Part shown: positions 13,671 to 64,000 of the stretch, in pieces
Position numbering within the stretch: position 1 is the first letter of the stretch
How the letters are laid out: the number at the start of each line of letters is the position of its first letter
The notes under the pieces: model-generated
What the model was told of the DNA's origin: nothing
Database searches by the model: none
What the model saw: only the letters and a program-made list of their open reading frames with translations
IMG/VR virus record: IMGVR_UViG_3300017747_002922
Coordinates: 1 to 64,000 of that record
DNA: 64,000 nt
Strand: one strand, 5' to 3'
Source: a virus
Lineage: Duplodnaviria > Caudoviricetes
Program-made: the position numbers and the translations under genes

Positions 13671-13862
13671 TCACCCCTCGGTCAGTCGCCCGTCCTGTAG
13701 GTGGCCCTGCGCATGTAGCTCGGTCACCACGAGGGAGGCGATCCACGTCGCCATCGGCAAGCCGGCGCGTGTCGCAGCGCGTCCGGCGGCCTTGCGTGCG
13801 TCCTTCCCGAGCGAGATGGGGATCCGGGTTGCGGCGCGGAGATCGTCGTCAGGGGTGTTCAT
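13671..13862 (-). CDS. Ribbon-helix-helix/HicB-C-like DNA-binding protein, antisense inside the head module
   Basis: RIPISLGKDARKAAGRAATRAGLPMATWIASLV pattern; has its own leaderless promoter. Confidence 0.65.
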   Translation of the reverse strand: MNTPDDDLRAATRIPISLGKDARKAAGRAATRAGLPMATWIASLVVTELHAQGHLQDGRLTEG

Positions 13863-13868
13863 GCCCGG

Positions 13869-13897
13869 AGCGTACCCCGCACCCGCGACCGTAGCAA
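13869..13897 (-). promoter_or_regulatory. Leaderless promoter TTGCTA-N17-TACGCT-N6-ATG
   Basis: The -10 T lies exactly 12 nt before the ATG at 13862; no SD. Confidence 0.6.
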
Positions 13898-13995
13898 ACA
13901 GACCGCACGCACACTGTACGCACGTTGCGACAAACACATAGGTGAAACCGGCCGACTTCTACGATCGAGAAAGTGCGCGGGGTAGTCTCTCCCCC

Positions 13996-14955
13996 ATGCC
14001 GATCGAGGAAACCGTCATCCCCCCCACTTCCGAGGCCCCCGCCTCCGAAGTCGCGCAACCCGAGGCCCCGGCTACCGCCGTGGTCGACGCCGCACCGGCC
14101 GACGCCGCCCCCAAGGGCTTCGACGCGTTCGATGCGTGGTACGCCGAACGAACGGCAAGCGCCGAGGGTGTGGACAAGACGCTGGACGAGTTCGCGTCCG
14201 GGTTCACGGTCGACGCGTTCAACGCGTTGGACCCCGCCGCGCAGACGACGGCCCTTGCCGTGCGCGCGCAGTACGAGCGCCGGATGGCCGCCGCCGAGAA
14301 GGCCGCGGAGGAGAAGGTCGCCAAGGCCAAGGCCGAGGCGGACAAGATCCTTGCGACCGCCAAGGCCAAGGAGAAGCAGTTGGCCCAGCGTGAGCGCGCG
14401 ATGTTCGCCGCTGCCGCTGCCGCGCCGGATCCTGGTGCCGCCCCCGAAGTGGACGTCTTCACCAAGGAGGGGATGACCGCGAACGCGGAGTACCTCGCCA
14501 AGAAGGCGGCATGGGAAGCGGCGGCCCCGATGCGCGAGCGTGAGCGCGCCGAGGCGACCCGGCTGGCGTGGGAGTCCACGCAGGAGACGTACCCCGACCT
14601 CGCAGACCCCAAGGTCTACAGCGAGTTCGAGGCGTTCATGGACGAGAAGAACAAGGGATGGGACCCCAAGAGCGGCACCCCTCCCCGCGTCAGCCTGAAG
14701 GTCGGCGCCGAGTTGTTCTTCAACGCCCGCGAGCTTGCCCAAGCGCGTGCCGATCGTGCCGCCCGCGTTCAGGCCGAGGACCGTGCCCGCGCGACGGCCG
14801 CAACGCAGATCGGACGCCGTGCTGGTGGTTCGCCCGCTGGCGACCCGCTGTCCATCTTCAACGCCAAGATCAAGGCCGACGAGAACGAGGCGTGGCGGTA
14901 CTTCGCCGGCCTGCCCGAGGGCGACAAAGCCCGCATCCAAGCATCCTTCACCTGA
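13996..14955 (+). CDS. Capsid scaffolding protein
   Basis: Ala/Glu/Lys-rich coiled coil directly upstream of the major capsid gene. Confidence 0.75.
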   Translation: MPIEETVIPPTSEAPASEVAQPEAPATAVVDAAPADAAPKGFDAFDAWYAERTASAEGVDKTLDEFASGFTVDAFNALDPAAQTTALAVRAQYERRMAAAEKAAEEKVAKAKAEADKILATAKAKEKQLAQRERAMFAAAAAAPDPGAAPEVDVFTKEGMTANAEYLAKKAAWEAAAPMRERERAEATRLAWESTQETYPDLADPKVYSEFEAFMDEKNKGWDPKSGTPPRVSLKVGAELFFNARELAQARADRAARVQAEDRARATAATQIGRRAGGSPAGDPLSIFNAKIKADENEAWRYFAGLPEGDKARIQASFT

Positions 14956-14972: not shown

Positions 14973-16052
14973 ATGCCCGCTGTCAATCTGAACTTCGAGA
15001 TCAGCGTACTGGCCGCCGCCGGTCAGCGCGCCGCCAGCACGTCCCGTGACGGCCTCCGTCGCGCCTGTTCCCTGCTCCACGCGCAGGAGATGGTCAACGG
15101 CAAGGGCAAGCCGAAGTGGGAGGGTGGGCAGTACATGACCACCGAGATCACGGTGCAGAACCACACCGGGATCACGCAGTTCGTGGACGGCTACGAACTC
15201 TACGACGCGTCCGCCTACGAGACGCAGCAGGTCCCCCGCTACCCGCTCGCGATCTCCGGCCTGATGATGAAGATCGGCGAGGCCGAACGTCGCCTGCTCG
15301 GCGCGACCGAGGGCGCGCTCCGGCACAAGGTCGAGACGCTGACCGAGGCCACCATGGGCTTCCTCCAGCGCCAGTGGCAGTCCCGCGTGCTCACCGGCAC
15401 CGGAACCGGGTTCACGAACTTCGTCACCCTCAACGGCATCGACTCGACCGCGGGCGTGTTCGAGCAGGACGCCGTCGGGTCGCAGTCCAACGTCATCGGC
15501 GGCGTGTCCAAGGCCACGTACTCCGGCGTCATCGGCTGGCAGAACCAGGTTGCCAATCTGAACAATGCGTTCGGGACGAACCAGATCGGGCTGTTCGGCC
15601 TGATCGCGAACACCGAGGTCCACAAGCCGCTGAACAAGAAGAAGAAGGTGTGGCTGATGACCGTCAACGGCGTCACCTTCCTCAAGCGCGTCACCCAGGG
15701 CGTGCAGCGGTTCGTCTCGACCGACCCGAAGGACACCGACTTCGGCGTGCCCATCGAGTACTACGACGGCGTGAAGATCTACCAGGAGTCGTTCCTGCCG
15801 ACCTCCGGCGTGAACACGACCACCTACCCGATCACCGCCATGCTCCTCGACCTCGAAGACATCTTCTTCGCGTGGGGCGGCGAGATGTCCGACGTCGGCG
15901 GCAAACTCCCGTCCGGGTACTTCGGCATGGGCGACTGGCGCCTCATCGGCGGCCTCCAGAGCGTGCTCGGGTGCCCGATGTCGGTGGTCGGTCAGACCAT
16001 CGTCGCGGACATGGGCTCGTCCGGCATCGCGTACGCTGGCGAAATCTTCTGA
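14973..16052 (+). CDS. Major capsid protein (HK97 fold expected)
   Basis: 359 aa; EGGQY...DGYE...TGTG...LNGI pattern; position after the scaffold; GGAG RBS. Confidence 0.85.
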   Translation: MPAVNLNFEISVLAAAGQRAASTSRDGLRRACSLLHAQEMVNGKGKPKWEGGQYMTTEITVQNHTGITQFVDGYELYDASAYETQQVPRYPLAISGLMMKIGEAERRLLGATEGALRHKVETLTEATMGFLQRQWQSRVLTGTGTGFTNFVTLNGIDSTAGVFEQDAVGSQSNVIGGVSKATYSGVIGWQNQVANLNNAFGTNQIGLFGLIANTEVHKPLNKKKKVWLMTVNGVTFLKRVTQGVQRFVSTDPKDTDFGVPIEYYDGVKIYQESFLPTSGVNTTTYPITAMLLDLEDIFFAWGGEMSDVGGKLPSGYFGMGDWRLIGGLQSVLGCPMSVVGQTIVADMGSSGIAYAGEIF

Positions 16053-48365: not shown

Positions 48366-49030
48366 GACGCACCCCCGAACGGCGAGGAGCGGAACGCCGA
48401 CATCCCCGCCGGACTCTCGATCTTGCCGTACGCCGTCGCCATCACGTCGCGGCTGGTCGCGGTGCGGAGGTTGATCGCGTAGGTAGCCTCGTACCAGTCT
48501 GCTACTGCCTCGGGGTCCACGTTGAGGTACTTGCGCACGTCGACCGCCCAGCCAGTGAAGAGGGACGCGGGGGCGTCGTTGGGCGGTCGCTGGTTGCCCG
48601 TCGGTGCGGTCGTCGGCCCCGGCGTCGCGAGCGGCCGGATCGTGTACGTCGTGTACTCGTTGCGCCGCGTCGGCAGCGTCACGTCGAACGGTTCGGACAG
48701 GTTGCTCATGTGCGAGACACGCACACCGCCCGTCTTGTTCTTCCCGTACGTCACGGCGGGGTCGTTGTAGATCGTGACCGACCGACCGACCCACTTGGCG
48801 GGGTTCCCCCACTTGCCGATCATCATGTGGCGCATCGTCAGGCACGGGAACCACGGCTTGAACCCGCCGTCGATCAGTACCTTGATCGGCTGCTTCCCGT
48901 CGGCGCTGTTGTTGTTCTTCACGCCGAGGATGCGAACCGTTGCGGGTCCACCTACGAGGTCCACGGCATTCAACTGCGCGGAGTTCGCCTTGGTCAACTC
49001 AACCACATCGAACGTCTCTTCGTCACTCAT
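48362..49030 (-). CDS. Conserved phage protein in the recombinase (annealase) position
   Basis: SAQLNAVDL, KPWFPCLTMR, KWVGRSVTIYNDPAVTYG, GGVRVSHMS; directly after the exonuclease. Confidence 0.6.
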   Translation of the reverse strand: MSDEETFDVVELTKANSAQLNAVDLVGGPATVRILGVKNNNSADGKQPIKVLIDGGFKPWFPCLTMRHMMIGKWGNPAKWVGRSVTIYNDPAVTYGKNKTGGVRVSHMSNLSEPFDVTLPTRRNEYTTYTIRPLATPGPTTAPTGNQRPPNDAPASLFTGWAVDVRKYLNVDPEAVADWYEATYAINLRTATSRDVMATAYGKIESPAGMSAFRSSPFGGAS

Positions 49031-49928
49031 CTTCGATCTCCGTGTCTTCAAAGGGTTCGTCGAGGTCGCCGAGGGCCCACGTCGGGACCTCGATGACGCG
49101 CAGGTCGGGTGCCACGCCCGGCCACTTGCCGCTCTCCGTGTGCATCTTGATCTTGCCGAGAAGTTCGGCCATCTTCGCCTTCCCGGCGTCCATGCTCTGC
49201 GTTCCGAGTTCGTACACCGCCACATCGAACGGCGGCTTGCTCTCGACGGCGATGATGATGAACTTCGGTTCGACTGCGAACAAGCCGGCCGCCATCGCGC
49301 CGTTGACGTAATGGGCCGCCTGAACGTAGTAGCCGCGCGTTGCGACTTCCCGCGCGAACCGGTCGGGCACGATCGACCGCGCCGTCTTCAGGTCCACGAT
49401 CGCGCCGCGCCGGGTGACCGCGTCGATCCTCGCCTTGCAGGGGAGGTTTGTGGCCGCGTCCGTCCACGTCACGTTGCGCTCGTTCTCGGACCCATCGAGG
49501 TACCACGCGGCGACAGGATGCGCGAATACCGCGCGCGCCATCGCTTCGACGTTGCTCCATGCTTCCTCGGTCAGCGTTGTACAGTCGTGCCACGTCTCCT
49601 TGTGCGACTCCCACGCCTTGCCCGAACGCCGGCCTTGGTAGAACGTGAACCGCTCGCCGCTCCACACGCCGCCGGGATGCGCGCCCCACTTCGAGGGCTC
49701 CAGCACACGCGTGTGGACGGCCCGCCCAACGCGCATGGGGTCGGTGTCATCGCGGCCCTTGTCGGTCGTGACCAGGTGCCAGTACGCGAGCGGGGACACG
49801 TCGATCGCCTTCGCGCGGGACACGTTGACGGCGTCCCAGCGGCAGTACGCATCGAACCCGGCGTCCGGCGACAGCCGCGGCCCCGTCTCCTGTTCGGCCC
49901 AAAGGCGCTCGATCTCGGGGTCAATCAC
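49023..49928 (-). CDS. PD-(D/E)XK exonuclease VIII-like protein (DUF3799 type)
   Basis: MRVGRAVHTRVLEP, SENE, CKARIDAV, IVDLKT, GYYVQAAHY, FIIIAVESKPPF. Confidence 0.85.
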   Translation of the reverse strand: MIDPEIERLWAEQETGPRLSPDAGFDAYCRWDAVNVSRAKAIDVSPLAYWHLVTTDKGRDDTDPMRVGRAVHTRVLEPSKWGAHPGGVWSGERFTFYQGRRSGKAWESHKETWHDCTTLTEEAWSNVEAMARAVFAHPVAAWYLDGSENERNVTWTDAATNLPCKARIDAVTRRGAIVDLKTARSIVPDRFAREVATRGYYVQAAHYVNGAMAAGLFAVEPKFIIIAVESKPPFDVAVYELGTQSMDAGKAKMAELLGKIKMHTESGKWPGVAPDLRVIEVPTWALGDLDEPFEDTEIEDE

Positions 49929-53441: not shown

Positions 53442-53780
53442 ATGTTTCAACGAGCCCCCGGTGAACTTGACCCGTTCGCAAACGGGAACATGTCGGACGA
53501 GTACAAGATCCAGACCATCAAGGACAACCTGCGCGCCCGTCAGCAGGCCCCCAACTACACCGGCTTTCTGACCGAGGAAGAGGCTGACTTCCTGTTCGGC
53601 GCCGTCGACCGCGCGAAGGAAGAGGCCGAAGAGGCGCGACAGGAACTCGAATCCACGCGCTCCGACCTGACCACGCAGATCGAAGAACTCGACGAGAAGG
53701 TCAGTGCCGCCGACGACAAGATCAAGGACCTCGAAGACGAGATCGAAGAACTCCGCAACAACAAGGACGCAACCCCGTGA
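53442..53780 (+). CDS. Acidic coiled-coil protein
   Basis: GAGGT RBS; heptad-rich C-terminus. Confidence 0.65.
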   Translation: MFQRAPGELDPFANGNMSDEYKIQTIKDNLRARQQAPNYTGFLTEEEADFLFGAVDRAKEEAEEARQELESTRSDLTTQIEELDEKVSAADDKIKDLEDEIEELRNNKDATP

Positions 53781-54892
53781 ACCTCATCATCTCCCGCAAA
53801 GAACTCGACGAACTCGCCGCCCGCGCACGGGGCATCGTCGAATCGAAGCCAAGCAACCCCGTCCTCGGGTGCGTCATCATCGACGCGACGCCTGACGGGG
53901 TCACCGCCACGTCCTACCGCTCGTCCATGGGCTACGTCGGCACCTACACGGCGAACGTGAGCGACCGCGGCCGGATCGCCGTCGACGTCGACGCGCTCCA
54001 GAAGGCGATCAAGACGCTCCCGCCCGGCCCGATCGCGATGGACGTGTCGACCACGAACCTGCGCCTCAAGATGTCCGTCGGCAAGTCGACGACGACGATC
54101 GGCACACTGGACCCCGCCGACCATCCCGGCGTCGTCGACGTCAAGGCCACCCACACGCTCACCGTCGACGCGCCCGCACTCCGGACGATCATCGACCAGA
54201 CCGTCAAGTGCATCGCCGAGGACGACAACAAGTATGGCCTGTCGGTGCTCCTGTTGGAGTTCGTCGGCGGCAAGGTCCGCGCCGTGTCGACCGATGGGAA
54301 CCGGCTGGCGTGGTCCGAGTGCGACGCCACGGGGGACGCGCCGTCCGGTACGCTCGTGCCCCGCGCGTGCGTGCTGGAGATGCGCGCGATGATCGACAAG
54401 ATCGCCGGCCCGGTTGAGATCGCCATCGAGCCCGGCCCGCGCGCTGGCTCCAAGCCGCGCGCACTCGCCGTCAAGTTGCCGGGCGAGACGCTGACGATCC
54501 GGTGCGCCGAGGTCGACTTTCCCGACTACCGGCAGGTGTTGCCGACGAACTACAAGCGGACGTGGACGGTCGACCGCGTCAACCTGCACGACACGTTGCG
54601 TCGCTTCCCGGTCGCGACGGGGTCCAACGCCGTCACCGTCACGCTCACCAACGGCACGGTCCACATGCGCCGGACGTGGGACACCAGCGAGACGAGCGCC
54701 GAGATCGACGCGAACTACACCGGCGACCGCACGGTGATGGGGTTCAACGTCGTCTATCTGGCGAACGCGCTGGGCGTCTGCACCGGCACCGACGTCGCGA
54801 TCAAGATGGGTGACACGCTGTCGCCGGTCGTGATCGAGGACCCTACCAACTCGGCGGCGCAGTTCGTCGTCATGCCCGTGCGGCTGGATTGA
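53777..54892 (+). CDS. dnaN: DNA polymerase III beta sliding clamp
   Basis: 371 aa; NPVLGCVII, VSTDGNRLA, DFPDYRQVLP, GFNVVYL, FVVMPVRL. Confidence 0.9.
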   Translation: MNLIISRKELDELAARARGIVESKPSNPVLGCVIIDATPDGVTATSYRSSMGYVGTYTANVSDRGRIAVDVDALQKAIKTLPPGPIAMDVSTTNLRLKMSVGKSTTTIGTLDPADHPGVVDVKATHTLTVDAPALRTIIDQTVKCIAEDDNKYGLSVLLLEFVGGKVRAVSTDGNRLAWSECDATGDAPSGTLVPRACVLEMRAMIDKIAGPVEIAIEPGPRAGSKPRALAVKLPGETLTIRCAEVDFPDYRQVLPTNYKRTWTVDRVNLHDTLRRFPVATGSNAVTVTLTNGTVHMRRTWDTSETSAEIDANYTGDRTVMGFNVVYLANALGVCTGTDVAIKMGDTLSPVVIEDPTNSAAQFVVMPVRLD

Positions 54893-54895
54893 GCG

Positions 54896-56278
54896 ATGGA
54901 CTACCTCGACTTCATCGACAAGAAGACGCAGGCCGGGAGCGACGAGGGGTTCGCGCCCATCGACCTCCCGCCCGCGCTCTTCGACTTCCAACGGTCGGTC
55001 GTTGAGTGGGCGGTTCGCAAGGGCCGCGCCGCCATCTTCGCCGATACCGGGCTCGGTAAGACGCTCATGCAGTTGGTGTGGGCGCACAACGTCGTGCTCC
55101 ACACGAACCGCCCCGTGCTCCTCCTGACCCCGTTGGCGGTAGGCGGTCAGACGGTGTTGGAGGCGGCCAAGTTCGGCATCGATGCGCGTCGCTCGCTCGA
55201 CGGAAAGACGGGCGCGGTGTGCGTGTGGGTGACGAACTACGAGAAGCTTCACCACTTCGACCCGCTCGACTTCGCGGGCGTCGTGTGTGACGAGTCGTCC
55301 ATCCTCAAGTCCTTCGACGGTTCAACACGTTCGGCCATCACCGAGTTCATGCGGAAGACGCCCTATCGCCTACTCTGCACGGCGACGGCGGCACCCAACG
55401 ACTACATCGAGTTGGGCACATCGTCGGAAGCCCTCGGCTACCTCGGTCACATGGACATGCTGTCGCGGTTCTTCAAGAACGACGCCGGCAACTCAATCCG
55501 CCCCGTCGCGTTCGGTCACGACAAGCGGTATGCGGGGTCCATGTGGCGGTTCAAGGGGCACGCCGAGGCGCCGTTCTGGCAGTGGGTGTGCTCGTGGGCG
55601 CGGGCCTTGCGCAAGCCGTCGGACGTGGGCGGCGATGACACGCCGTTCATCCTGCCGGCACTCACCCAAGCGGAGCACGTCATCAAGACAGCGACGCCGC
55701 GCGAAGGGTTCCTGTTCACGCTGCCGGCCCGCGGGTTGGACGAGCAGCGCGACGAGCGCCGCCGGACCATCACCGAGCGGTGCGAACGGACGGCGGATCT
55801 CGTGAACGGAACCGGTCAACCCGCGCTTTCGTGGTGCCACCTGAACGCGGAGGGGGACCTGCTGACGAAGTTGATCCCCGACGCCGTTCAGGTCAGCGGT
55901 GCCGACTCCGACGAAGCCAAGGAAGAGGCGTTCATGGGGTTCGTGCGCGGGGACATCCGCGTCCTCGTGACCAAGCCGTCCATTGGAGCGTGGGGGCTCA
56001 ATTTTCAGCATTGTGCCCACGTCACCATGTTCCCGTCGCACTCGTACGAGCAGACGTACCAGGGAATCCGGCGGTGCTGGCGCTTCGGGCAGACGCGCCC
56101 CGTTCACGTCGACATGGTCACGTCCGAAGGGGAGCGCGGTGTCCTCGACAACTATCTGCGGAAGGCCGTCGCCGCTGACAAGATGTTTTCTCAACTCGTC
56201 GCGGAGATGAACCGCGCCAACTCCATCGACCGTTCCCGAACCTTCAACAACGCAACCAAGGTGCCAACGTGGCTGTAA
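54896..56278 (+). CDS. SNF2-like SF2 helicase
   Basis: ADTGLGKT, VCDESS, CTATAAPND, GLNFQHC, RRCWRFGQ. Confidence 0.9.
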   Translation: MDYLDFIDKKTQAGSDEGFAPIDLPPALFDFQRSVVEWAVRKGRAAIFADTGLGKTLMQLVWAHNVVLHTNRPVLLLTPLAVGGQTVLEAAKFGIDARRSLDGKTGAVCVWVTNYEKLHHFDPLDFAGVVCDESSILKSFDGSTRSAITEFMRKTPYRLLCTATAAPNDYIELGTSSEALGYLGHMDMLSRFFKNDAGNSIRPVAFGHDKRYAGSMWRFKGHAEAPFWQWVCSWARALRKPSDVGGDDTPFILPALTQAEHVIKTATPREGFLFTLPARGLDEQRDERRRTITERCERTADLVNGTGQPALSWCHLNAEGDLLTKLIPDAVQVSGADSDEAKEEAFMGFVRGDIRVLVTKPSIGAWGLNFQHCAHVTMFPSHSYEQTYQGIRRCWRFGQTRPVHVDMVTSEGERGVLDNYLRKAVAADKMFSQLVAEMNRANSIDRSRTFNNATKVPTWL

Positions 56279-57234
56279 CCGACCAGATCATCACCGACCG
56301 ATACGCCATCTACAACGGGGACTCTGTCGAGGTAATGCGCGACTTGCCTTCGGGCGTCGTCGGCCTCTCCGTCTACTCGCCCCCGTTCGGCGGGCTCTAC
56401 TGCTACTCGTCCAACGAGCGCGATCTCTCCAACTGCAAGGACTACGAACAATTCTTCGATCAGTACGGGTACTTCATCCGCGAGATCCTGCGCCTCACCA
56501 TGCCGGGCCGGATGTCGGTCGTCCACGTCACCGACGTCCCGTCGGGCAACTCCGGCGGCGACCACCTGATCGACTTCTCCGGCGATGTGATCCGCGCCCA
56601 CCAGAAGGAAGGGTGGAAGTACGTTGCGCGCTACTCCGTGTGGAAGGAGCCCCTCGGCGTGCGGAACCGGACCATGCGCAAGGACCTGGCCCACAAGTCC
56701 ATCGTTGACGACTCGTCGCGGTGCTCGTGCGCGCAGGCCGACTACATGCTCGTGTTCCGCAAGCCCGGCGAGAACGCCGTACCCATCGAGCACCCGACCG
56801 GACTGACCGACTACTACGGCGAGCGCGAGATCCCGGCGGAACTCCTGCCCTTCAAGAACTGGAAGGGCAACCAGATCGAGAACCGGTACTCTCACTGGAT
56901 CTGGCGTCAGTACGCGTCCTCGTTCTGGGATGACGTGCGCGGCGAGCGCGTGTTGCCCTTCCACGAAGCGCGCGAGGATGAGGACGAGAAGCACGTTCAC
57001 CCGCTGCAACTCGACGTGATCGACCGCTCTATCATCCTCTGGTCCAACCCCGGCGAGGTCGTGTTCACGCCGTTCATGGGCGTGGGGTCCGAGGTCCACG
57101 AAGCGGTCAAGTTGGGCCGCAAGGGCATCGGCTGCGAACTGAAGCCGTCGTACTTCGCGCAGGCCGTGAAGAACCTCGCGGCGGTCGACGTCGGCCCCGA
57201 CGACTCGCAACTCTCGTTGTTCGGGAAGCCCTGA
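56269..57234 (+). CDS. DNA N4-cytosine/N6-adenine methyltransferase, beta class
   Basis: Motif IV YSPPF before motif I PFMGVGS; GCELKPSYF. Confidence 0.9.
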   Translation: MAVTDQIITDRYAIYNGDSVEVMRDLPSGVVGLSVYSPPFGGLYCYSSNERDLSNCKDYEQFFDQYGYFIREILRLTMPGRMSVVHVTDVPSGNSGGDHLIDFSGDVIRAHQKEGWKYVARYSVWKEPLGVRNRTMRKDLAHKSIVDDSSRCSCAQADYMLVFRKPGENAVPIEHPTGLTDYYGEREIPAELLPFKNWKGNQIENRYSHWIWRQYASSFWDDVRGERVLPFHEAREDEDEKHVHPLQLDVIDRSIILWSNPGEVVFTPFMGVGSEVHEAVKLGRKGIGCELKPSYFAQAVKNLAAVDVGPDDSQLSLFGKP

Positions 57235-59412: not shown

Positions 59413-59430
59413 GACTTCGATTCGCTGATG

Positions 59431-59532
59431 TTCGATGGCAGTCGAACGGAAGCTCCGATTCTTAGCGGCGATGGCCGCGCCCTGCGCCACCCGGTTCCGC
59501 TGCCACGGCGCCGGGTGGCCTTCGGAGTTTCG
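59431..59532 (+). ncRNA. Candidate cis-regulatory structured leader (three-way junction masking the SD)
   Basis: P1 59449-58/59522-31, P2 59465-69/59474-78, P3 59486-94/59511-19, plus 5' hairpin 59431-35/59442-46. Confidence 0.5.
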
Positions 59533-60153
59533 GTGATCTCGTACGCCTCTCGCACCGGCACCAAACGCAACCTCGCGGCCCTCCGTGGCGCGGGGTGGCG
59601 GATCCTTGTGTCGGCGAAGGGCGTCCACCGCACCGAGGGATTCCCCTACGCGATCGACAACGGGGCGTGGACGGCGCATCAGCAGGGCATCCCGTTCGAC
59701 GATGCGGCGTTCATCAAGTGCGTGAACTACCTCGGCGCCGACGCTGACTTCGTGGTGGCCCCTGATGTCGTCATGGGCGGCATGGGGTCGCTCGCGTTGT
59801 CGCTGACGTGGCTCCCGTGGTTGCGCGATCGGTGCCGCCGGATCCTTGTCCCCGTTCAGGACGGGATGACCGACGAGGACATCGCGCCGCTCCTGTCTCC
59901 CGAGCTCGGGATCTTCGTGGGCGGATCGACCGAGTGGAAGGAGGCGACCACCCTCCGATGGTCGCGCCTTGCTCACGCTCACGGGGCGTGGTGCCACGTC
60001 GGGCGCGTCAACACGGTTCGTCGGATCCGCATCTGTCAGTTCGCCGCCGTCGATTCGATCGATGGTTCGTCCGCCTCTCGCTACGCCGTGACCCTGCCGA
60101 AACTTGACGGGGCCGTTCGTCAACCTTCTCTCTTCGGGTGCCTGAATGCCTGA
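59533..60153 (+). CDS. Minimal TGT/DpdA-like deazaguanine transglycosylase (206 aa)
   Basis: TGT-type motifs IDNGAW, APDVV, VPVQDG, IFVGG, HVGRVN, DSIDGS; adjacent to queC; GGAG 5 nt before the GTG. Confidence 0.7.
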   Translation: MISYASRTGTKRNLAALRGAGWRILVSAKGVHRTEGFPYAIDNGAWTAHQQGIPFDDAAFIKCVNYLGADADFVVAPDVVMGGMGSLALSLTWLPWLRDRCRRILVPVQDGMTDEDIAPLLSPELGIFVGGSTEWKEATTLRWSRLAHAHGAWCHVGRVNTVRRIRICQFAAVDSIDGSSASRYAVTLPKLDGAVRQPSLFGCLNA

Positions 60154-60742
60154 CCTTGTCGTCCTTCTCTCCGGTGGCCTTGACTCGACGGTGTGCGCCG
60201 AGATTGCCCGTCGATCGGGACACCTTCACTCCGTCGTCTCGTTCGCGTACGGACAAGCGAATACCGTGCAGGAGATGGGTGCGGCCGAACGGTGGGCGGC
60301 GCGTCACAGGGTTCCCCGCAAGGTGTTCGCGGTCGACGTGCCCGGCGTGTCCGCCCTCGACATCGGGGCGGGCGCCCACGGCCCCCGCGTGGTCGCCGGC
60401 CGCAATCTGCTTCTCCTGTCGCACGCCACCGCCTACGCGTTGTCGGTCGGTGCCTGTCGCGTGTGGATCGGTTGCAACGCGGACGACGCCGAGGACTACC
60501 CCGACTGTCGGCGCGAGTTCATCGAGGCCGCCGGGATGATGACGTGGCTCGCCTACGGGTCGCGGGTGTGGGCCCCCCTGATCGACATGAACAAGCGGCA
60601 AGTCGTGGCGAAGGCGCGCGAACTCGGGGTCGACATCGCTGATACGTGGTCCTGCTACCAGCCGTCGATCGCTCGCCCGCTGGAACCGTGCGGGACCTGC
60701 AACGCGTGCCGACTTCGGGCGTCCGCGATGGGTGACGAATGA
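60146..60742 (+). CDS. queC: 7-cyano-7-deazaguanine synthase QueC
   Basis: LSGGLDST, SFAYGQ, GRNLLLL, YPDCR, TWSCY...CGTCNAC. Confidence 0.9.
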   Translation: MPDLVVLLSGGLDSTVCAEIARRSGHLHSVVSFAYGQANTVQEMGAAERWAARHRVPRKVFAVDVPGVSALDIGAGAHGPRVVAGRNLLLLSHATAYALSVGACRVWIGCNADDAEDYPDCRREFIEAAGMMTWLAYGSRVWAPLIDMNKRQVVAKARELGVDIADTWSCYQPSIARPLEPCGTCNACRLRASAMGDE

Positions 60743-61026
60743 CCGCCCCCGCCAACTTCGGCCTCTACATCAAATCCCTCCGCACCGCCGCCAACCTGTC
60801 GCAGCACGAGCTTGCCCGCGACCTCGGCGTGTCTCACGTCACCCTCGGCGAAGTGGAGCGCGGCAAGCGGACCACGCTCGCGCCGCGCCACTGGCCCGAA
60901 CTCGTGCGCCGGATCGGTGCTGACTTCGGGGTGCTTCAGGCCCTCGCCACGACGGAGCGCGTAGCCACCCTACAGCGCCGGATCGACGCGCTACAGGTTG
61001 GCAATCTGCCTACTGACGGGGTATGA
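60739..61026 (+). CDS. XRE-family HTH protein (paralog 1)
   Basis: FGLYIKSLRTAANLSQHELARDLGVSHVTLGEVERG. Confidence 0.85.
   Translation: MTAPANFGLYIKSLRTAANLSQHELARDLGVSHVTLGEVERGKRTTLAPRHWPELVRRIGADFGVLQALATTERVATLQRRIDALQVGNLPTDGV
60766..60805 (+). repeat. 40-bp direct repeat, copy 1 (39/40 identical to 61769-61808)
   Basis: TACATCAAATCCCT(C/T)CGCACCGCCGCCAACCTGTCGCAGC. Confidence 0.9.
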
Positions 61027-61027
61027 T
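60998..61027 (+). promoter_or_regulatory. Leaderless promoter TTGGCA-N18-TATGAT for the mom-like gene
   Basis: The -10 box contains the HTH stop codon; the ATG is 5 nt after it. Confidence 0.55.
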
Positions 61028-61032
61028 GCGTC

Positions 61033-61737
61033 ATGGTTCACGCGTTGTCTCCTGAATGGCCGCACCCGTGGCCCCGACCGGTTCGCGTGCCGCTTGACGT
61101 GGTGACGCCGCTCCTCCGTGAGTACCACCACTACAAGGGCGGCGGGGACGTGGGCGACGCGTGGGCGTGCATCGAGCGCGGGCGTGTGGTCGCCGGTTGG
61201 GTGTGGACCCCGCCGGCACCGGGGGCGGCGTCGAAGTACGCGCCATCGTGTCCTGCGGCCGTGCTCGCCCTGTCGCGCATGGTCGCGATCCCGAAGGCGG
61301 ATCGGGCGTGGCAGATCAGCAAACCCCTCCTCTGGATCATGCGCCACGGGCTCGACCGGGGCCGATGGCCGGTCCTCCTCACGTACTCCGACAAGGGCGC
61401 CGGCCACGAGGGGATCGCCTACATGGCGTCCCGGTGGAAGCGCGGCGAGACGACGGTATCGGACACGTATGAGGACAGCGACGGGCGCCGCCGCTGTCGG
61501 TGCGTGAGGGGGGGGCAACGCGTCCCCGGCCTGACGCGCACGGGGTCCACCGAGATCACGGCGTGGACGCACCGCGTGTGCCCCATGGGTGAGGAGCAGG
61601 CGTGGATGGAGGCCCACGGGTGGCAGCGGGTCAGGGTGCCCGGCAAGACGTGGCGGTCGGGCGCGGACGCTCACACATGGCAGTGGGTCGACCCGCGGCA
61701 GTTGAACCTCTTTGAAGGAGTGCGTCATGCACTGTAA
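61033..61737 (+). CDS. Mom-family (GNAT-fold) adenine-modification enzyme
   Basis: LLREYHHY, LALSRMV, VLLTYSDKGAGHEGIAYMASRW, matching the Mom-type SYSD..GH.G..YQA.NW motif. Confidence 0.75.
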   Translation: MVHALSPEWPHPWPRPVRVPLDVVTPLLREYHHYKGGGDVGDAWACIERGRVVAGWVWTPPAPGAASKYAPSCPAAVLALSRMVAIPKADRAWQISKPLLWIMRHGLDRGRWPVLLTYSDKGAGHEGIAYMASRWKRGETTVSDTYEDSDGRRRCRCVRGGQRVPGLTRTGSTEITAWTHRVCPMGEEQAWMEAHGWQRVRVPGKTWRSGADAHTWQWVDPRQLNLFEGVRHAL

Positions 61738-62035
61738 AACCGAGGACCGAGCGACTTCGTTCGGGTCTTACATCAAATCCCTTCGCACCGCCGCCAACCT
61801 GTCGCAGCGGGCGTTGGCCGAGCGGTTGGGCGTCACCCCTGCCCACATCGCGCACATCGAGCAGGGGGAGCGCCGCGCCCTCGCCGAACGCCACTGGCCC
61901 GCGCTGGTCGCGATCGGGGCGGACCTCAACACCTTGCGCCGGCTGGCGGCCCGCCCCGAGGTTGCCGCCCTTCACGACGAGATCGACCGACTGCGTGCGC
62001 AGTTGGCTGGTAGTGCGCTTATCGGCGTGGTATAG
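61727..62035 (+). CDS. XRE-family HTH protein (paralog 2)
   Basis: FGSYIKSLRTAANLSQRALAERLGVTPAHIAHIEQG. Confidence 0.85.
   Translation: MHCKTEDRATSFGSYIKSLRTAANLSQRALAERLGVTPAHIAHIEQGERRALAERHWPALVAIGADLNTLRRLAARPEVAALHDEIDRLRAQLAGSALIGVV
61769..61808 (+). repeat. 40-bp direct repeat, copy 2
   Basis: Lies 1003 bp from copy 1. Confidence 0.9.
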
Positions 62036-62036
62036 T
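62028..62036 (+). promoter_or_regulatory. Extended -10 leaderless promoter TG-G-TATAGT for the replication initiator
   Basis: The -10 box contains the HTH stop codon; the ATG is 5 nt after it. Confidence 0.55.
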
Positions 62037-62041
62037 GCTGC

Positions 62042-62980
62042 ATGGCGTGGTTCAGCACTGACGAGAGCGTATGGGAGGCGGCGTGCTCCGACCTCCCCCA
62101 ACCGTGGCCAGAGGCGTTCGCGCGCATGGATCTGCGCTACCACGAGAACCGGCACCGGATGAAGGTTGCGCCGTTTCCGGGGCGCGTCGCCCTGTCGAAC
62201 CGGTGGGGGTGGACTGACCGCAAGGTGCGGAATCTCCTCGACGCCGACGACTGGCACGACCCCCAACGGCCGGTCGCCCGTGAGGACCTGCGCGGCAAGT
62301 GGGACGGAAAAGTCCAACAGCCCGCCAACACGCCGCCAACACCGCGTCCAACAGACCGCCAACAGGACAACGAACCAACGCCGGTAGTTGAGAAGAATCC
62401 GCCAACAGCCTGCCAACAGGATGTCCAACAGCCTGCCAACTCGGTGTCCATCGCGCGCGTCTCTTCTCTAACCACGGGAACCACTGAACCACGGGAACCA
62501 CTGGAGACACATACAGCGCCCGCAAGCGGGCCCGTGTGTGTCGAACCTGAACCGCAACTGACCCTGCTCACCCTACCTGCTCCGAAGCCCGTCGACCTCG
62601 AAGCGGCATGGACGGCACTCACGGCATGGACCCCGAAGCCGGCAGCGTGGAAGCTAACGGCCGAGCGTCGCAAGCACCTGACCGCGAGGATCGCCGACCA
62701 CGGGGAAGCGACCGTGTACCGGGTGGCCGAATGGGTGCGGACCTCGGAGCACGATCGGGCGGCGTTCCTTAGGGGTCACGGAGACGTCGACACTCTGTTG
62801 AGGCCGGGGAAGTTCGCCACCTACGCCGCGATGAGTGCGGGGCCGGCACCGGCAGCGAAGGTCAACGGGCGCCCGGTCGCCCCGTCCTACGCCGACACCC
62901 GCCGCGAGATCGAAGAGATGGAGCGGGGCGCAACGCTACGAACCGGCGCATTCGACGCCGACTATGAGGTACTCCAGTGA
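62042..62980 (+). CDS. Replication initiator (lambda O-like position)
   Basis: N-terminal wHTH-like part (GRVALSNRWGWTDRKVRNLL), low-complexity linker with repeats, C-terminal KLTAERRKHL...DTLLRP domain; upstream of loader and DnaB. Confidence 0.75.
   Translation: MAWFSTDESVWEAACSDLPQPWPEAFARMDLRYHENRHRMKVAPFPGRVALSNRWGWTDRKVRNLLDADDWHDPQRPVAREDLRGKWDGKVQQPANTPPTPRPTDRQQDNEPTPVVEKNPPTACQQDVQQPANSVSIARVSSLTTGTTEPREPLETHTAPASGPVCVEPEPQLTLLTLPAPKPVDLEAAWTALTAWTPKPAAWKLTAERRKHLTARIADHGEATVYRVAEWVRTSEHDRAAFLRGHGDVDTLLRPGKFATYAAMSAGPAPAAKVNGRPVAPSYADTRREIEEMERGATLRTGAFDADYEVLQ
62312..62441 (+). repeat. Iteron-like CCAACA repeats, probable replication origin
   Basis: Copies at 62314, 62325, 62336, 62348, 62359, 62402, 62413, 62425, 62436 (last CCAACT); 11-12-bp period. 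Confidence 0.7.
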
Positions 62981-63594
62981 TCACGATCAACCAGATCCTC
63001 GACATGTTCGAGGTGCTCGAATCGACGGGACTCCGGCCCCCCGACGTCTACGGCCGCCCGGCGGATCGGGCGACGGGCACCCCGAGCGGTCGGGCGTTCG
63101 CGGCACGGGTGTACGTGGTGGCGTTCGACCAAGGCGGGTACACATGGCCCGAGGTCGAAGCGGCGGCGATGGCGTACGCGCTCGAACCGCAGGAAGGGCA
63201 GTACCCGAAGCCGTGGCCGAGCCCGGGGCACATCGCGGCCCGTACGGCGATGGGTCGACTCGCGTTGACCCTCGGCACCCCCGCCGACGCGGATCGGGCA
63301 TGGGTCGACTTCGTGGCCCGCGGGCAGTCGCTCGTCAGCAAGGGCCGCCCCCCGACGATGGAGTACGGCCGCGATGCCCTCGACCCGGACCCGCACCGAC
63401 ACAAGGCGATGTGGGCGGGGCTCTGCGCACTCGGCGGGTGGGACCTGTACCGCATGGCCGACCCGTCCGACCGGGGCCTGTCGATGCGCTTCCGTGCCGC
63501 CTTCACGGCGTTCCGTGAGCAGCAGCGGACCTCACCCGGCGTGGTGCGTGAGATCCTGGCCGCGTCCCCCCGCCTGCTTTCGGTGGCGTCGTGA
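62977..63594 (+). CDS. Putative helicase loader/inhibitor-like protein
   Basis: Between initiator and DnaB; helical; YPKPWPSPGHI. Confidence 0.5.
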   Translation: MITINQILDMFEVLESTGLRPPDVYGRPADRATGTPSGRAFAARVYVVAFDQGGYTWPEVEAAAMAYALEPQEGQYPKPWPSPGHIAARTAMGRLALTLGTPADADRAWVDFVARGQSLVSKGRPPTMEYGRDALDPDPHRHKAMWAGLCALGGWDLYRMADPSDRGLSMRFRAAFTAFREQQRTSPGVVREILAASPRLLSVAS

Positions 63595-64000
63595 GCAACC
63601 GCGGCCTCCCTCACGACTGGCACATCGAGCAGGTGTTGTTGGGGACCATTCTCGCGTGCGGCGACGTGTCCGCCGTGGTCGACGTGGTCAAGCCCGACGA
63701 CTTCCACAAGCCGACGCACGCGCTGTTGTTCGGCCACATCCTCGCGTGCGCCGCCGAGGGCGACCCCCCGACCCCGGCCCGCTTGCTCCGCCGGATCGAG
63801 GCGGCGGGTGCGCTGGAGTCGTTGGCGGCCGTCTCGCACATGGGCCCGACGCACTACGTGCTGTCACTGTCGTCGCATGGCGACATCCCCGAGAACATCG
63901 GCGGCCTGGTCCGGGACCTCCTCCGCGACTCACGCCGACGGGCGGCCGTCCTCGAACTGCGCGCCCTCGAAGAACGGCTGTTGTCGGATGTGAGCGTGGA
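63591..64000 (+). CDS. dnaB: Replicative helicase DnaB, N-terminal part (truncated by the window end)
   Basis: Translated by hand from the GTG at 63591: LPHDWHIEQVLLGTIL...KPDDFHKPTHALLF...ENI; no stop before the end. Confidence 0.75.
   Translation, partial: MSNRGLPHDWHIEQVLLGTILACGDVSAVVDVVKPDDFHKPTHALLFGHILACAAEGDPPTPARLLRRIEAAGALESLAAVSHMGPTHYVLSLSSHGDIPENIGGLVRDLLRDSRRRAAVLELRALEERLLSDVSV

Follow-up and report, generated by a model that had tools for sequence, protein, structure and literature searches.

Within the first 64,000 nucleotides (nt) of an uncultured phage genome (IMG/VR record IMGVR_UViG_3300017747_002922, bases 1-64000, hereafter the window), a gene for a Mom-family GNAT lies between two genes for helix-turn-helix (HTH) regulators of the XRE type, HTH-A and HTH-B, and HTH-B is followed by a probable replication initiator gene. 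The explanation we favour, with a probability of about 0.55, combines leaderless-type promoters at the two junctions, a mosaic mom cassette and a later gene-conversion tract. The two HTH genes would be ancient paralogues, each ending in a start signal for the next gene. This signal would be a GGTAnnnT -10-type element composed of a rare GTA Val codon, the stop codon and a T, placed 5 nt before an ATG that lacks a Shine-Dalgarno (SD) site. The first junction would serve the divergent Mom-family protein, predicted to hypermodify adenine via aminoacyl-tRNA as Mu Mom does, and the second would serve the initiator, with its internal iterons, and then a DnaB helicase. The sequence comparisons below show the direct repeat, the two junctions, the membership of the Mom family, saturated synonymous sites outside the core of the repeat, a mosaic pattern and a start motif that recurs across the genome. 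Promoter activity, leaderless translation, binding of the HTH proteins at nearby palindromes and the order of events are what we infer from these features.

Stop codons within promoter-like hexamers

HTH-A (60739-61026, 95 amino acids (aa)), the mom gene (61033-61737, 234 aa), HTH-B (61727-62035, 102 aa) and the putative initiator gene (62042-62980, 312 aa) are all encoded on the + strand. Both HTH genes end in the pattern G-GTA-stop-TGC-nnC-ATG-G. At junction A (GGTATGATGCGTCATGG, 61020-61036, +), the rare Val codon GTA, a TGA stop and a 6-nt spacer precede the mom ATG; the stop (61024-61026) falls within the hexamer TATGAT (61022-61027), and the ATG is at 61033. Junction B (GGTATAGTGCTGCATGG, 62029-62045, +) is identical to junction A at 13/17 positions. 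Its TAG stop (62033-62035) falls within TATAGT (62031-62036) and the ATG of the initiator gene is at 62042. The distance from hexamer to ATG is thus 5 nt at both junctions. That each HTH stop codon lies in a -10-like box 5 nt before the next ATG had been reported in the first-pass annotation, and it can be read directly in the sequence.

The same annotation had proposed that the hexamers act as promoters for mom and for the downstream gene, and several features argue for this. The hexamer of unit A belongs to a sigma-70-like promoter, TTGGCA-18 nt-TATGAT (60998-61027, +), inside the 3' end of HTH-A, with the TGA stop contained in its -10. It matches TTGACA-N18-TATAAT at 10/12 positions, a consensus that may not be the host's. 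It is the sole hit in 56-64 kb, and one of only two 10/12 sites on both strands of the 78-kb genome (156 kb). In unit B, an extended -10-like element (TGn), TGGTATAGT (62028-62036, +), contains the TAG stop of HTH-B. Furthermore, GTA represents 3.5% of the Val codons of the phage, and both HTH genes end with it. The C-terminal tails of this HTH family are variable, but in 10 of 13 members the last two residues are GV or VV, which suggests a constraint on the DNA and not on the protein.

Of the phage genes, as roughly called, between a third and two fifths are preceded by an SD-like site; none was found before mom or before the 312-aa initiator gene. The arrangement of GGTAnnnT, 5-7 nt and an ATG devoid of SD site recurs at other real gene starts. 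Genome-wide, GGTANNNT sites lie 4-9 nt before such a start in 6 of 41 cases, against 0.67 expected (P = 5e-5). The full 17-mer of the junctions was also considered as a genome-wide motif and set aside: it has no look-alike elsewhere in the 78-kb genome, where all other matches need 3 mismatches, and only its GGTAnnnT part recurs.

Two of the six motif-bearing starts belong to a pair of divergent genes, 13671-13862 (-) and 13996-14955 (+), which start 6-7 nt after GCGGGGTAnnnT without SD sites (13852-13998 of the window). The pair flanks an AT-richer intergenic region (13863-13995), which must hold promoters, and no upstream open reading frame (ORF) is present for translational coupling. As these starts share the architecture of those of mom and of the initiator gene, they suggest that leaderless mRNAs are frequent in the host.

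On sequence grounds, the stop-overlapping hexamers are therefore credible as -10 elements, and both junctions suggest leaderless-type promoters, with termination-reinitiation as an added or alternative route on read-through transcripts. Transcripts starting at the junctions would be leaderless, and ribosomes on read-through transcripts could reinitiate across the 6-nt gap. Leaderless mRNAs with promoters 5-7 nt before the start codon are known for lambda cI transcribed from PRM, and for many genes of Actinomycetota and Deinococcota. The present junctions resemble those cases in that TAnnnT lies 5-7 nt before an SD-less ATG and recurs at other transcription-unit starts; they differ in that the -10 is encoded by the last sense codon and the stop codon of an upstream regulator gene.

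Two palindromes close to the junctions are weak candidate operators. The imperfect palindrome CAGGTTGgCAATCTG (60994-61008) lies over the -35 hexamer of unit A. It holds the 9-mer GCCAACCTG, the third and only genomic copy besides those in the two cores of the direct repeat described below. The other palindrome, CCGACTGCG-TG-CGCAGTTGG (61987-62006), is found upstream of the second -10 and is unique in the genome. A 15-mer, CAGGTTGCCAATCTG, located at 15546-15560 within a gene of 359 aa (14973-16052), matches the unit A -35 palindrome at 14/15 positions; by our estimate, the chance expectation for such a match is ~0.003-0.01. RNA folding of each HTH unit gave no signal (z-scores of -0.05 and -0.5), and with such scores a pairing between core and 3' end in the minimum-energy folds was not supported.

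The two XRE-type paralogues and their direct repeat

Both HTH proteins score above the Pfam cut-offs of the two HTH domains tested, HTH_3 and HTH_31, with 39.4 and 36.1 bits for HTH-A and 41.3 and 40.1 bits for HTH-B. They share 54% identity over 81 aa (E = 1e-25). Their genes carry a direct repeat, 60757-60816 and 61760-61819, with 83% identity over 60 nt and a spacing of 1003 nt. Its core (60766-60805 in copy A, which encodes YIKSLRTAANLSQ, and 61769-61808 in copy B, both +) is identical at 39/40 positions, the single difference being CTC/CTT, and the longest exact match between the copies is 25 nt. Alignment, Pfam domains and protein identity thus agree with the first-pass description of two XRE paralogues sharing a 39/40 repeat 1003 bp apart. 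We considered misassembly through the repeat. It is unlikely with an exact match of this length, and a collapse would leave a hybrid gene and not a tandem.

The core has a history different from that of the rest of the genes. Inside it, 12 of the 13 identical residues are encoded by identical codons, against 7.0 expected from phage codon usage (P = 0.0016), and the rare Lys codon AAA is common to both copies. Outside the core, 13 of 30 identical residues share their codon, against 13.6 expected on the same basis; the copies are thus saturated at synonymous sites there. Since HTH-B clearly, and HTH-A less clearly, also has kin in other metagenomes that are closer to it than its partner in this genome, the pair is not a recent duplication. 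Orthologues of HTH-B in other samples are 72-90% identical to it, and the helix-3/recognition-helix region of HTH-A (SHVTLGEVERG) is common to a different clade. In the tree, the HTH-B clade is moderately supported and the position of HTH-A is not settled. The proposed duplication of the HTH-promoter unit with capture of mom, if taken as recent and local, is thus not supported, in view of the saturated synonymous sites and of the HTH-B orthologues found elsewhere.

Protein comparisons show the same pattern. HTH-B matches its 90% identical orthologue P0285 at 71/75 positions outside the core segment and at 12/16 inside it; for HTH-A against HTH-B, the corresponding values are 31/69 and 15/16. 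The simplest reading of the sequences is that the core was homogenized by a gene-conversion tract of ~40 nt between the two copies in the present genome, so the repeats would have recombined at least once. HTH-A and HTH-B are thus old paralogues, anciently diverged, with a young core.

The Mom-family gene, the initiator and their mosaic setting

The gene between the two HTH genes had been called Mom-like, and profile and fold comparisons bear this out. We collected 289 homologues of the 234-aa protein, most of them with the Pfam Mom domain (PF25680); those 45-68% identical to it score 29-43 bits and so pass the Pfam cut-off. The profile of an alignment of 54 homologues (A3) matched Mu Mom in hhalign (97.1%, E = 4.8e-11, 135 columns), and an hmmsearch of the PDB sequences with A3 returned 8bv8, a Mom structure, as sole hit (E = 5.6e-12). 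The AlphaFold2 model of the protein has a predicted local distance difference test (pLDDT) score of 92.6. In Foldseek searches with this model, the top two matches were chains B and A of 8bv8 (E = 1.5e-8, TM scores of 0.53-0.61), followed by generic GNATs.

Functionally important residues of Mu Mom were identified by Silva et al. 2026 (PMC13219725), with numbers that correspond to the GenBank numbering plus 10. R111, S124, D149, Y159 and H58/Y59 of Mu Mom align to R82, S96, D120, Y130 and H32/Y34 of the phage protein, and these catalytic and H-Y residues are invariant or nearly so in alignments A1 and A3. Thus, as aligned and modelled, the fold and most of the active site fit Mom, and the two proteins belong to the same GNAT-derived fold and family (8bv8, PF25680) in spite of an identity of only ~12-16%. 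They appear to differ in their C-terminal parts: Mu Mom has an essential HTH-like insertion (~175-209); the sequence alignments end at ~150-153, and the model, with beta hairpins and one short helix in this region, predicts a part rich in beta strands here. As a GNAT, Mu Mom draws on charged tRNA (PMC13219725), and its overproduction is lethal to Escherichia coli (PMC7261163). The hallmark of Mom activity is N6-carbamoylmethyl-adenine in DNA, made from Gly-tRNA. By analogy, the sequence and model of the 234-aa protein predict an enzyme that hypermodifies adenine in the DNA of the phage. In both systems, the gene just upstream is a small regulatory one. It codes for an XRE DNA-binding protein here, and for Com, a zinc-finger translational activator, in the com-mom operon of Mu. 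Moreover, mom is part of a replication module here, whereas Mu mom, at the end of its genome, is controlled as a late gene by C, Dam and OxyR.

The pairing with HTH genes is not conserved: in 104 other Mom loci, no neighbour resembles HTH-A or HTH-B. In 81 of these loci, the genes upstream of Mom are those of methyltransferases, helicases, polymerases and primases, and the 25 commonest of these neighbours include no HTH family. Homologues 85%, 69% and 75% identical to the protein come from contigs of 2.2, 61.6 and 42.1 kb, respectively. The two nearest relatives whose flanks can be seen have no HTH-like sequence ahead of Mom: a methyltransferase-like SPPY segment precedes the 85% identical protein in frame, and an unrelated ORF precedes the 63% identical one. 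The former, P0002, is the closest relative and is called as a protein of 313 aa, whose N-terminus resembles the start of an amino-methyltransferase (SPPY) read into Mom; this extension may represent a fusion or a remnant, or else an artefact of gene calling. Scans of IMG/VR with Mom, the initiator, the initiator alignment A5 and the HTH family revealed no close relative, and metagenome and genome scans yielded only Mom relatives of <=63% identity, with different neighbours.

Conversely, an HTH-B-like gene and an initiator 78-82% identical to the 312-aa protein come from contigs matching in size and source, of 3,017 nt (JGI) and 4,840 nt (NCBI). None of the listed Mom homologues lies on a contig of 3,017, 4,840, 12,409 or 3,569 nt. 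An HTH gene followed by an initiator gene thus appears to exist without mom in relatives. Further traces are found at the ends of the cassette. HTH-B starts within the 3' end of mom, at an ATG with a GAAGGAG SD site and a TGCGTC spacer (61714-61729, +), and its N-terminus has ~10 extra residues that are missing from its orthologues. Both ends of the mom ORF carry the 9-mer TGCGTCATG (start copy at 61027-61035), which has three copies in the genome. The extension and the 9-mer are consistent with a splice scar, and from the sequence mom seems to be a mosaic insert at the junction of an HTH gene with an initiator gene. The ancestral order would then be HTH followed by initiator, and mom and a second HTH allele would have been joined to it by recombination between phage lineages.

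As a cassette, mom would behave like a moron. Phage morons are well known, and in the modular theory of phage evolution conserved boundary sequences were proposed to guide module exchange between lambdoid phages. The locus fits such schemes in that an accessory gene of many contexts lies between two core genes and is flanked by recombinable homology. It departs from them in that a complete paralogous regulator gene with its junction, not a short linker, provides the flanking homology, and mom has no terminator of its own, in contrast with morons.

The gene that follows HTH-B is probably that of a replication initiator, as the first-pass annotation had it. The identification is plausible because of the internal iterons, the DnaB gene downstream and a weak O/DnaD-like similarity. 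The 312-aa protein, composed of an N-terminal domain, an iteron-encoded linker and a helical C-terminal domain, has no match in Pfam, PHROG or NCBIfam. Its Atlas neighbours are Phg_2220_C, Phage_rep_O or HTH_36 proteins (score of 0.95), a weak lead, and one domain-swapped relative carries HTH_36. Matches of the C-terminal domain fold to G39P and DnaD are weak (Z of 3.7-4.5) and were obtained with a partly poor model, in which the N-terminal 180 residues have pLDDT values <50. The family is domain-shuffled (P0275, P0276 and P0279), its N- and C-terminal domains being exchanged independently around the linker: in some relatives the C-terminal domain is retained next to another N-terminal domain, and in one the N-terminal domain and linker are joined to another C-terminal domain.

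The gene harbours an origin-like array of iterons, (G/T)CCAACAG/C (repeat family D1; 62311-62440, +), partly in 11-bp phase, that encodes the QQP/AN-rich linker. Six of the 14 CCAACAG copies of the genome lie within 62314-62431, and a perfect 17-bp tandem repeat, AACCACGGGAACCACTG, in two copies (62470-62503, +), adjoins the iterons. As in the lambda cII-O-P and P22 c1-18-12 modules, a small HTH gene directly precedes the initiator gene, phased iterons lie in the linker region of the initiator, and helicase or loader genes follow. Nevertheless, the initiator shares no sequence family with lambda O or its P22 counterpart, with no Phage_rep_O hit here. The HTH gene is in two copies, unlike in lambda and P22, and the initiator gene, which has no SD site, appears to be expressed from a -10 that contains the HTH stop codon.

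The complete record is a virus genome of 77,917 bp with direct terminal repeats, rated complete, and with a GC content of ~68% along its length. No similarity to cultured phages was found. The genes near the mom locus are all on the + strand and tightly packed; between 59.4 and 65 kb they overlap by 4-11 nt or are separated by 6-nt gaps, and no terminator was found between them. The + strand genes upstream code for a sliding clamp (53777-54892), a helicase (54896-56278), a DNA methyltransferase (56269-57234), a protein whose sole match is phrog_15826, of unassigned function (59428-60153), and a QueC homologue (60146-60742; PF06508, E = 3.8e-44) whose stop codon overlaps the start of HTH-A (ATGA). 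A TGT/DpdA identity was considered for the ORF at 59428-60153 and received no support from Pfam, NCBIfam and PDB sequence searches. Downstream of the initiator gene, also on the + strand, are the genes of a 205-aa protein with no family assigned (62977-63594), whose start and stop overlap the adjoining genes, and of a DnaB-like replicative helicase (63591-64961, extending beyond the window end at 64000; Pfam DnaB N-terminal domain; phrog_19, E = 1.2e-88). The locus is thus part of a replication and DNA-modification operon of an uncultured high-GC phage.

Other genes of this phage relate to DNA modification or recombination. Just past the window, at 66081-66947 of the genome and on the opposite strand (-), lies another DNA methyltransferase gene (phrog_363, E = 1e-82), so that the phage has several DNA-modification genes, those of the two methyltransferases, QueC and Mom. 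A RecE-like PDDEXK exonuclease is encoded at 49023-49928 (-; phrog_412 'exonuclease VIII', E = 5e-56; Pfam DUF3799). None of its neighbours was recognized as a partner annealing protein.

Alternative readings and implications

Several observations weigh against the reading of junction promoters serving a mosaic mom cassette. The -35 of unit B is poor, and this unit falls below the 9/12 threshold of the promoter scan. The -10 assignment is made from the sequence only, and the two junctions are homologous, hence not two independent observations. The closeness of stop and start could by itself account for the missing SD sites, and the promoter rules of the host may differ from the consensus used. 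By our estimate, the arm-match statistics of both palindromes are near chance. For the mom gene, the Pfam Mom score of the protein itself is 15.7 bits, below the cut-off of 27.1, and R151, an essential residue of Mu Mom, is not conserved, its equivalent being G122; an invariant His of the subfamily, H125, lies three residues past it. Lastly, the co-occurrence of genes in relatives was deduced from matching contig sizes alone, not from DNA.

The absence of any internal promoter is possible, if on balance unlikely. Translational coupling within one long operon transcript would then explain the junctions, with TAnnnT as a by-product of a Val codon and a stop codon. The tight packing of the genes between 59.4 and 65 kb, with no terminator found between them, agrees with this, and so does the presence of the TGCGTC spacer before the ATG of HTH-B, which does have an SD site. 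Coupling, however, requires neither the rare GTA codon nor the T after the stop; GGTAnnnT-N5-7-ATG is also found at divergent genes with no upstream ORF to couple; and unit A has a good -35 hexamer at 18 nt. A toxin-antitoxin-like pair, with HTH-A as an XRE antitoxin that neutralizes and auto-represses an aminoacyl-tRNA GNAT, and HTH-B as a second antitoxin-like regulator, is very improbable in our view. Both HTH proteins match HipB/Y4mF-type antitoxin models weakly (E ~1e-8, far below cut-off), and Mom, a GNAT acting on charged tRNA (PMC13219725), is toxic when overproduced (PMC7261163). Nevertheless, the pairing is not conserved in the 104 Mom loci nor among the 25 commonest upstream neighbours in 81 loci, and the same HTH family precedes an initiator, which is not a toxin.

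It had also been proposed that recombination between the 40-nt repeats deletes or amplifies the 1003-bp mom segment, as a switch tied to replication control. If frequent, such events would create subpopulations with and without Mom, a bet-hedging against its toxicity. Because both repeats share one codon phase, a deletion would preserve the frame and its hybrid product would be similar to the orthologues. The homogenized core indicates that the copies recombined at least once at the DNA level, the phage encodes a RecE-like PDDEXK exonuclease, Mom-less relatives probably exist, and Mu Mom is lethal when overproduced (PMC7261163). We nonetheless consider a switch distinctly unlikely. The copies match exactly over no more than 25 nt, the neighbours of the exonuclease include no recognized annealing protein, and a deletion is irreversible within a single genome. 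Moreover, homologues of this Mom subfamily are normally unflanked in replication modules, so special control seems unneeded, and paralogy commonly gives rise to direct repeats of such a size. Mom loss by recombination between the repeats is possible and would be mechanistically easy. What the evidence shows is one past conversion together with probable Mom-less relatives, not frequent, reversible or regulated rearrangement.

In the reading that we favour, a crossover between the cores would excise 1003 nt without a frameshift and leave QueC, a 97-aa hybrid HTH protein, the second junction and the initiator. This product would resemble the single-copy orthologues, and we would regard such an event as occasional cassette loss, not as a designed switch. 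A broader idea is improbable on present evidence: the last part of the HTH gene, its stop-overlapping -10 and a leaderless ATG 5 nt further on would form a portable 'expression socket' conserved in the phage HTH family, with mom and initiator genes swapped exactly at the ATG, and paralogous sockets would recombine so that the anti-restriction cassette is gained and lost at an appreciable rate in phage populations.

Overall, the locus looks like a regulatory and mosaic variant around a known enzyme family, the result of ordinary phage gene shuffling with an unusual start signal. Its main points of note are the stop-overlapping -10 with a leaderless-type start and a conversion tract that is unusually clear. 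Restriction is strongly countered by Mom-type hypermodification of adenine, the chemistry of which has only lately been solved. To our knowledge, metagenomic Mom homologues number in the thousands, and we know of nothing on how they are controlled outside Mu. The locus offers a testable alternative for mom control, in which the last codons of an XRE regulator gene would form the promoter for a leaderless mom. It also gives a nucleotide-resolution view of a cassette spliced into a replication module, and possibly of its loss again. Finally, the GGTAnnnT-ATG motif aids the annotation of this phage and hints at its host.

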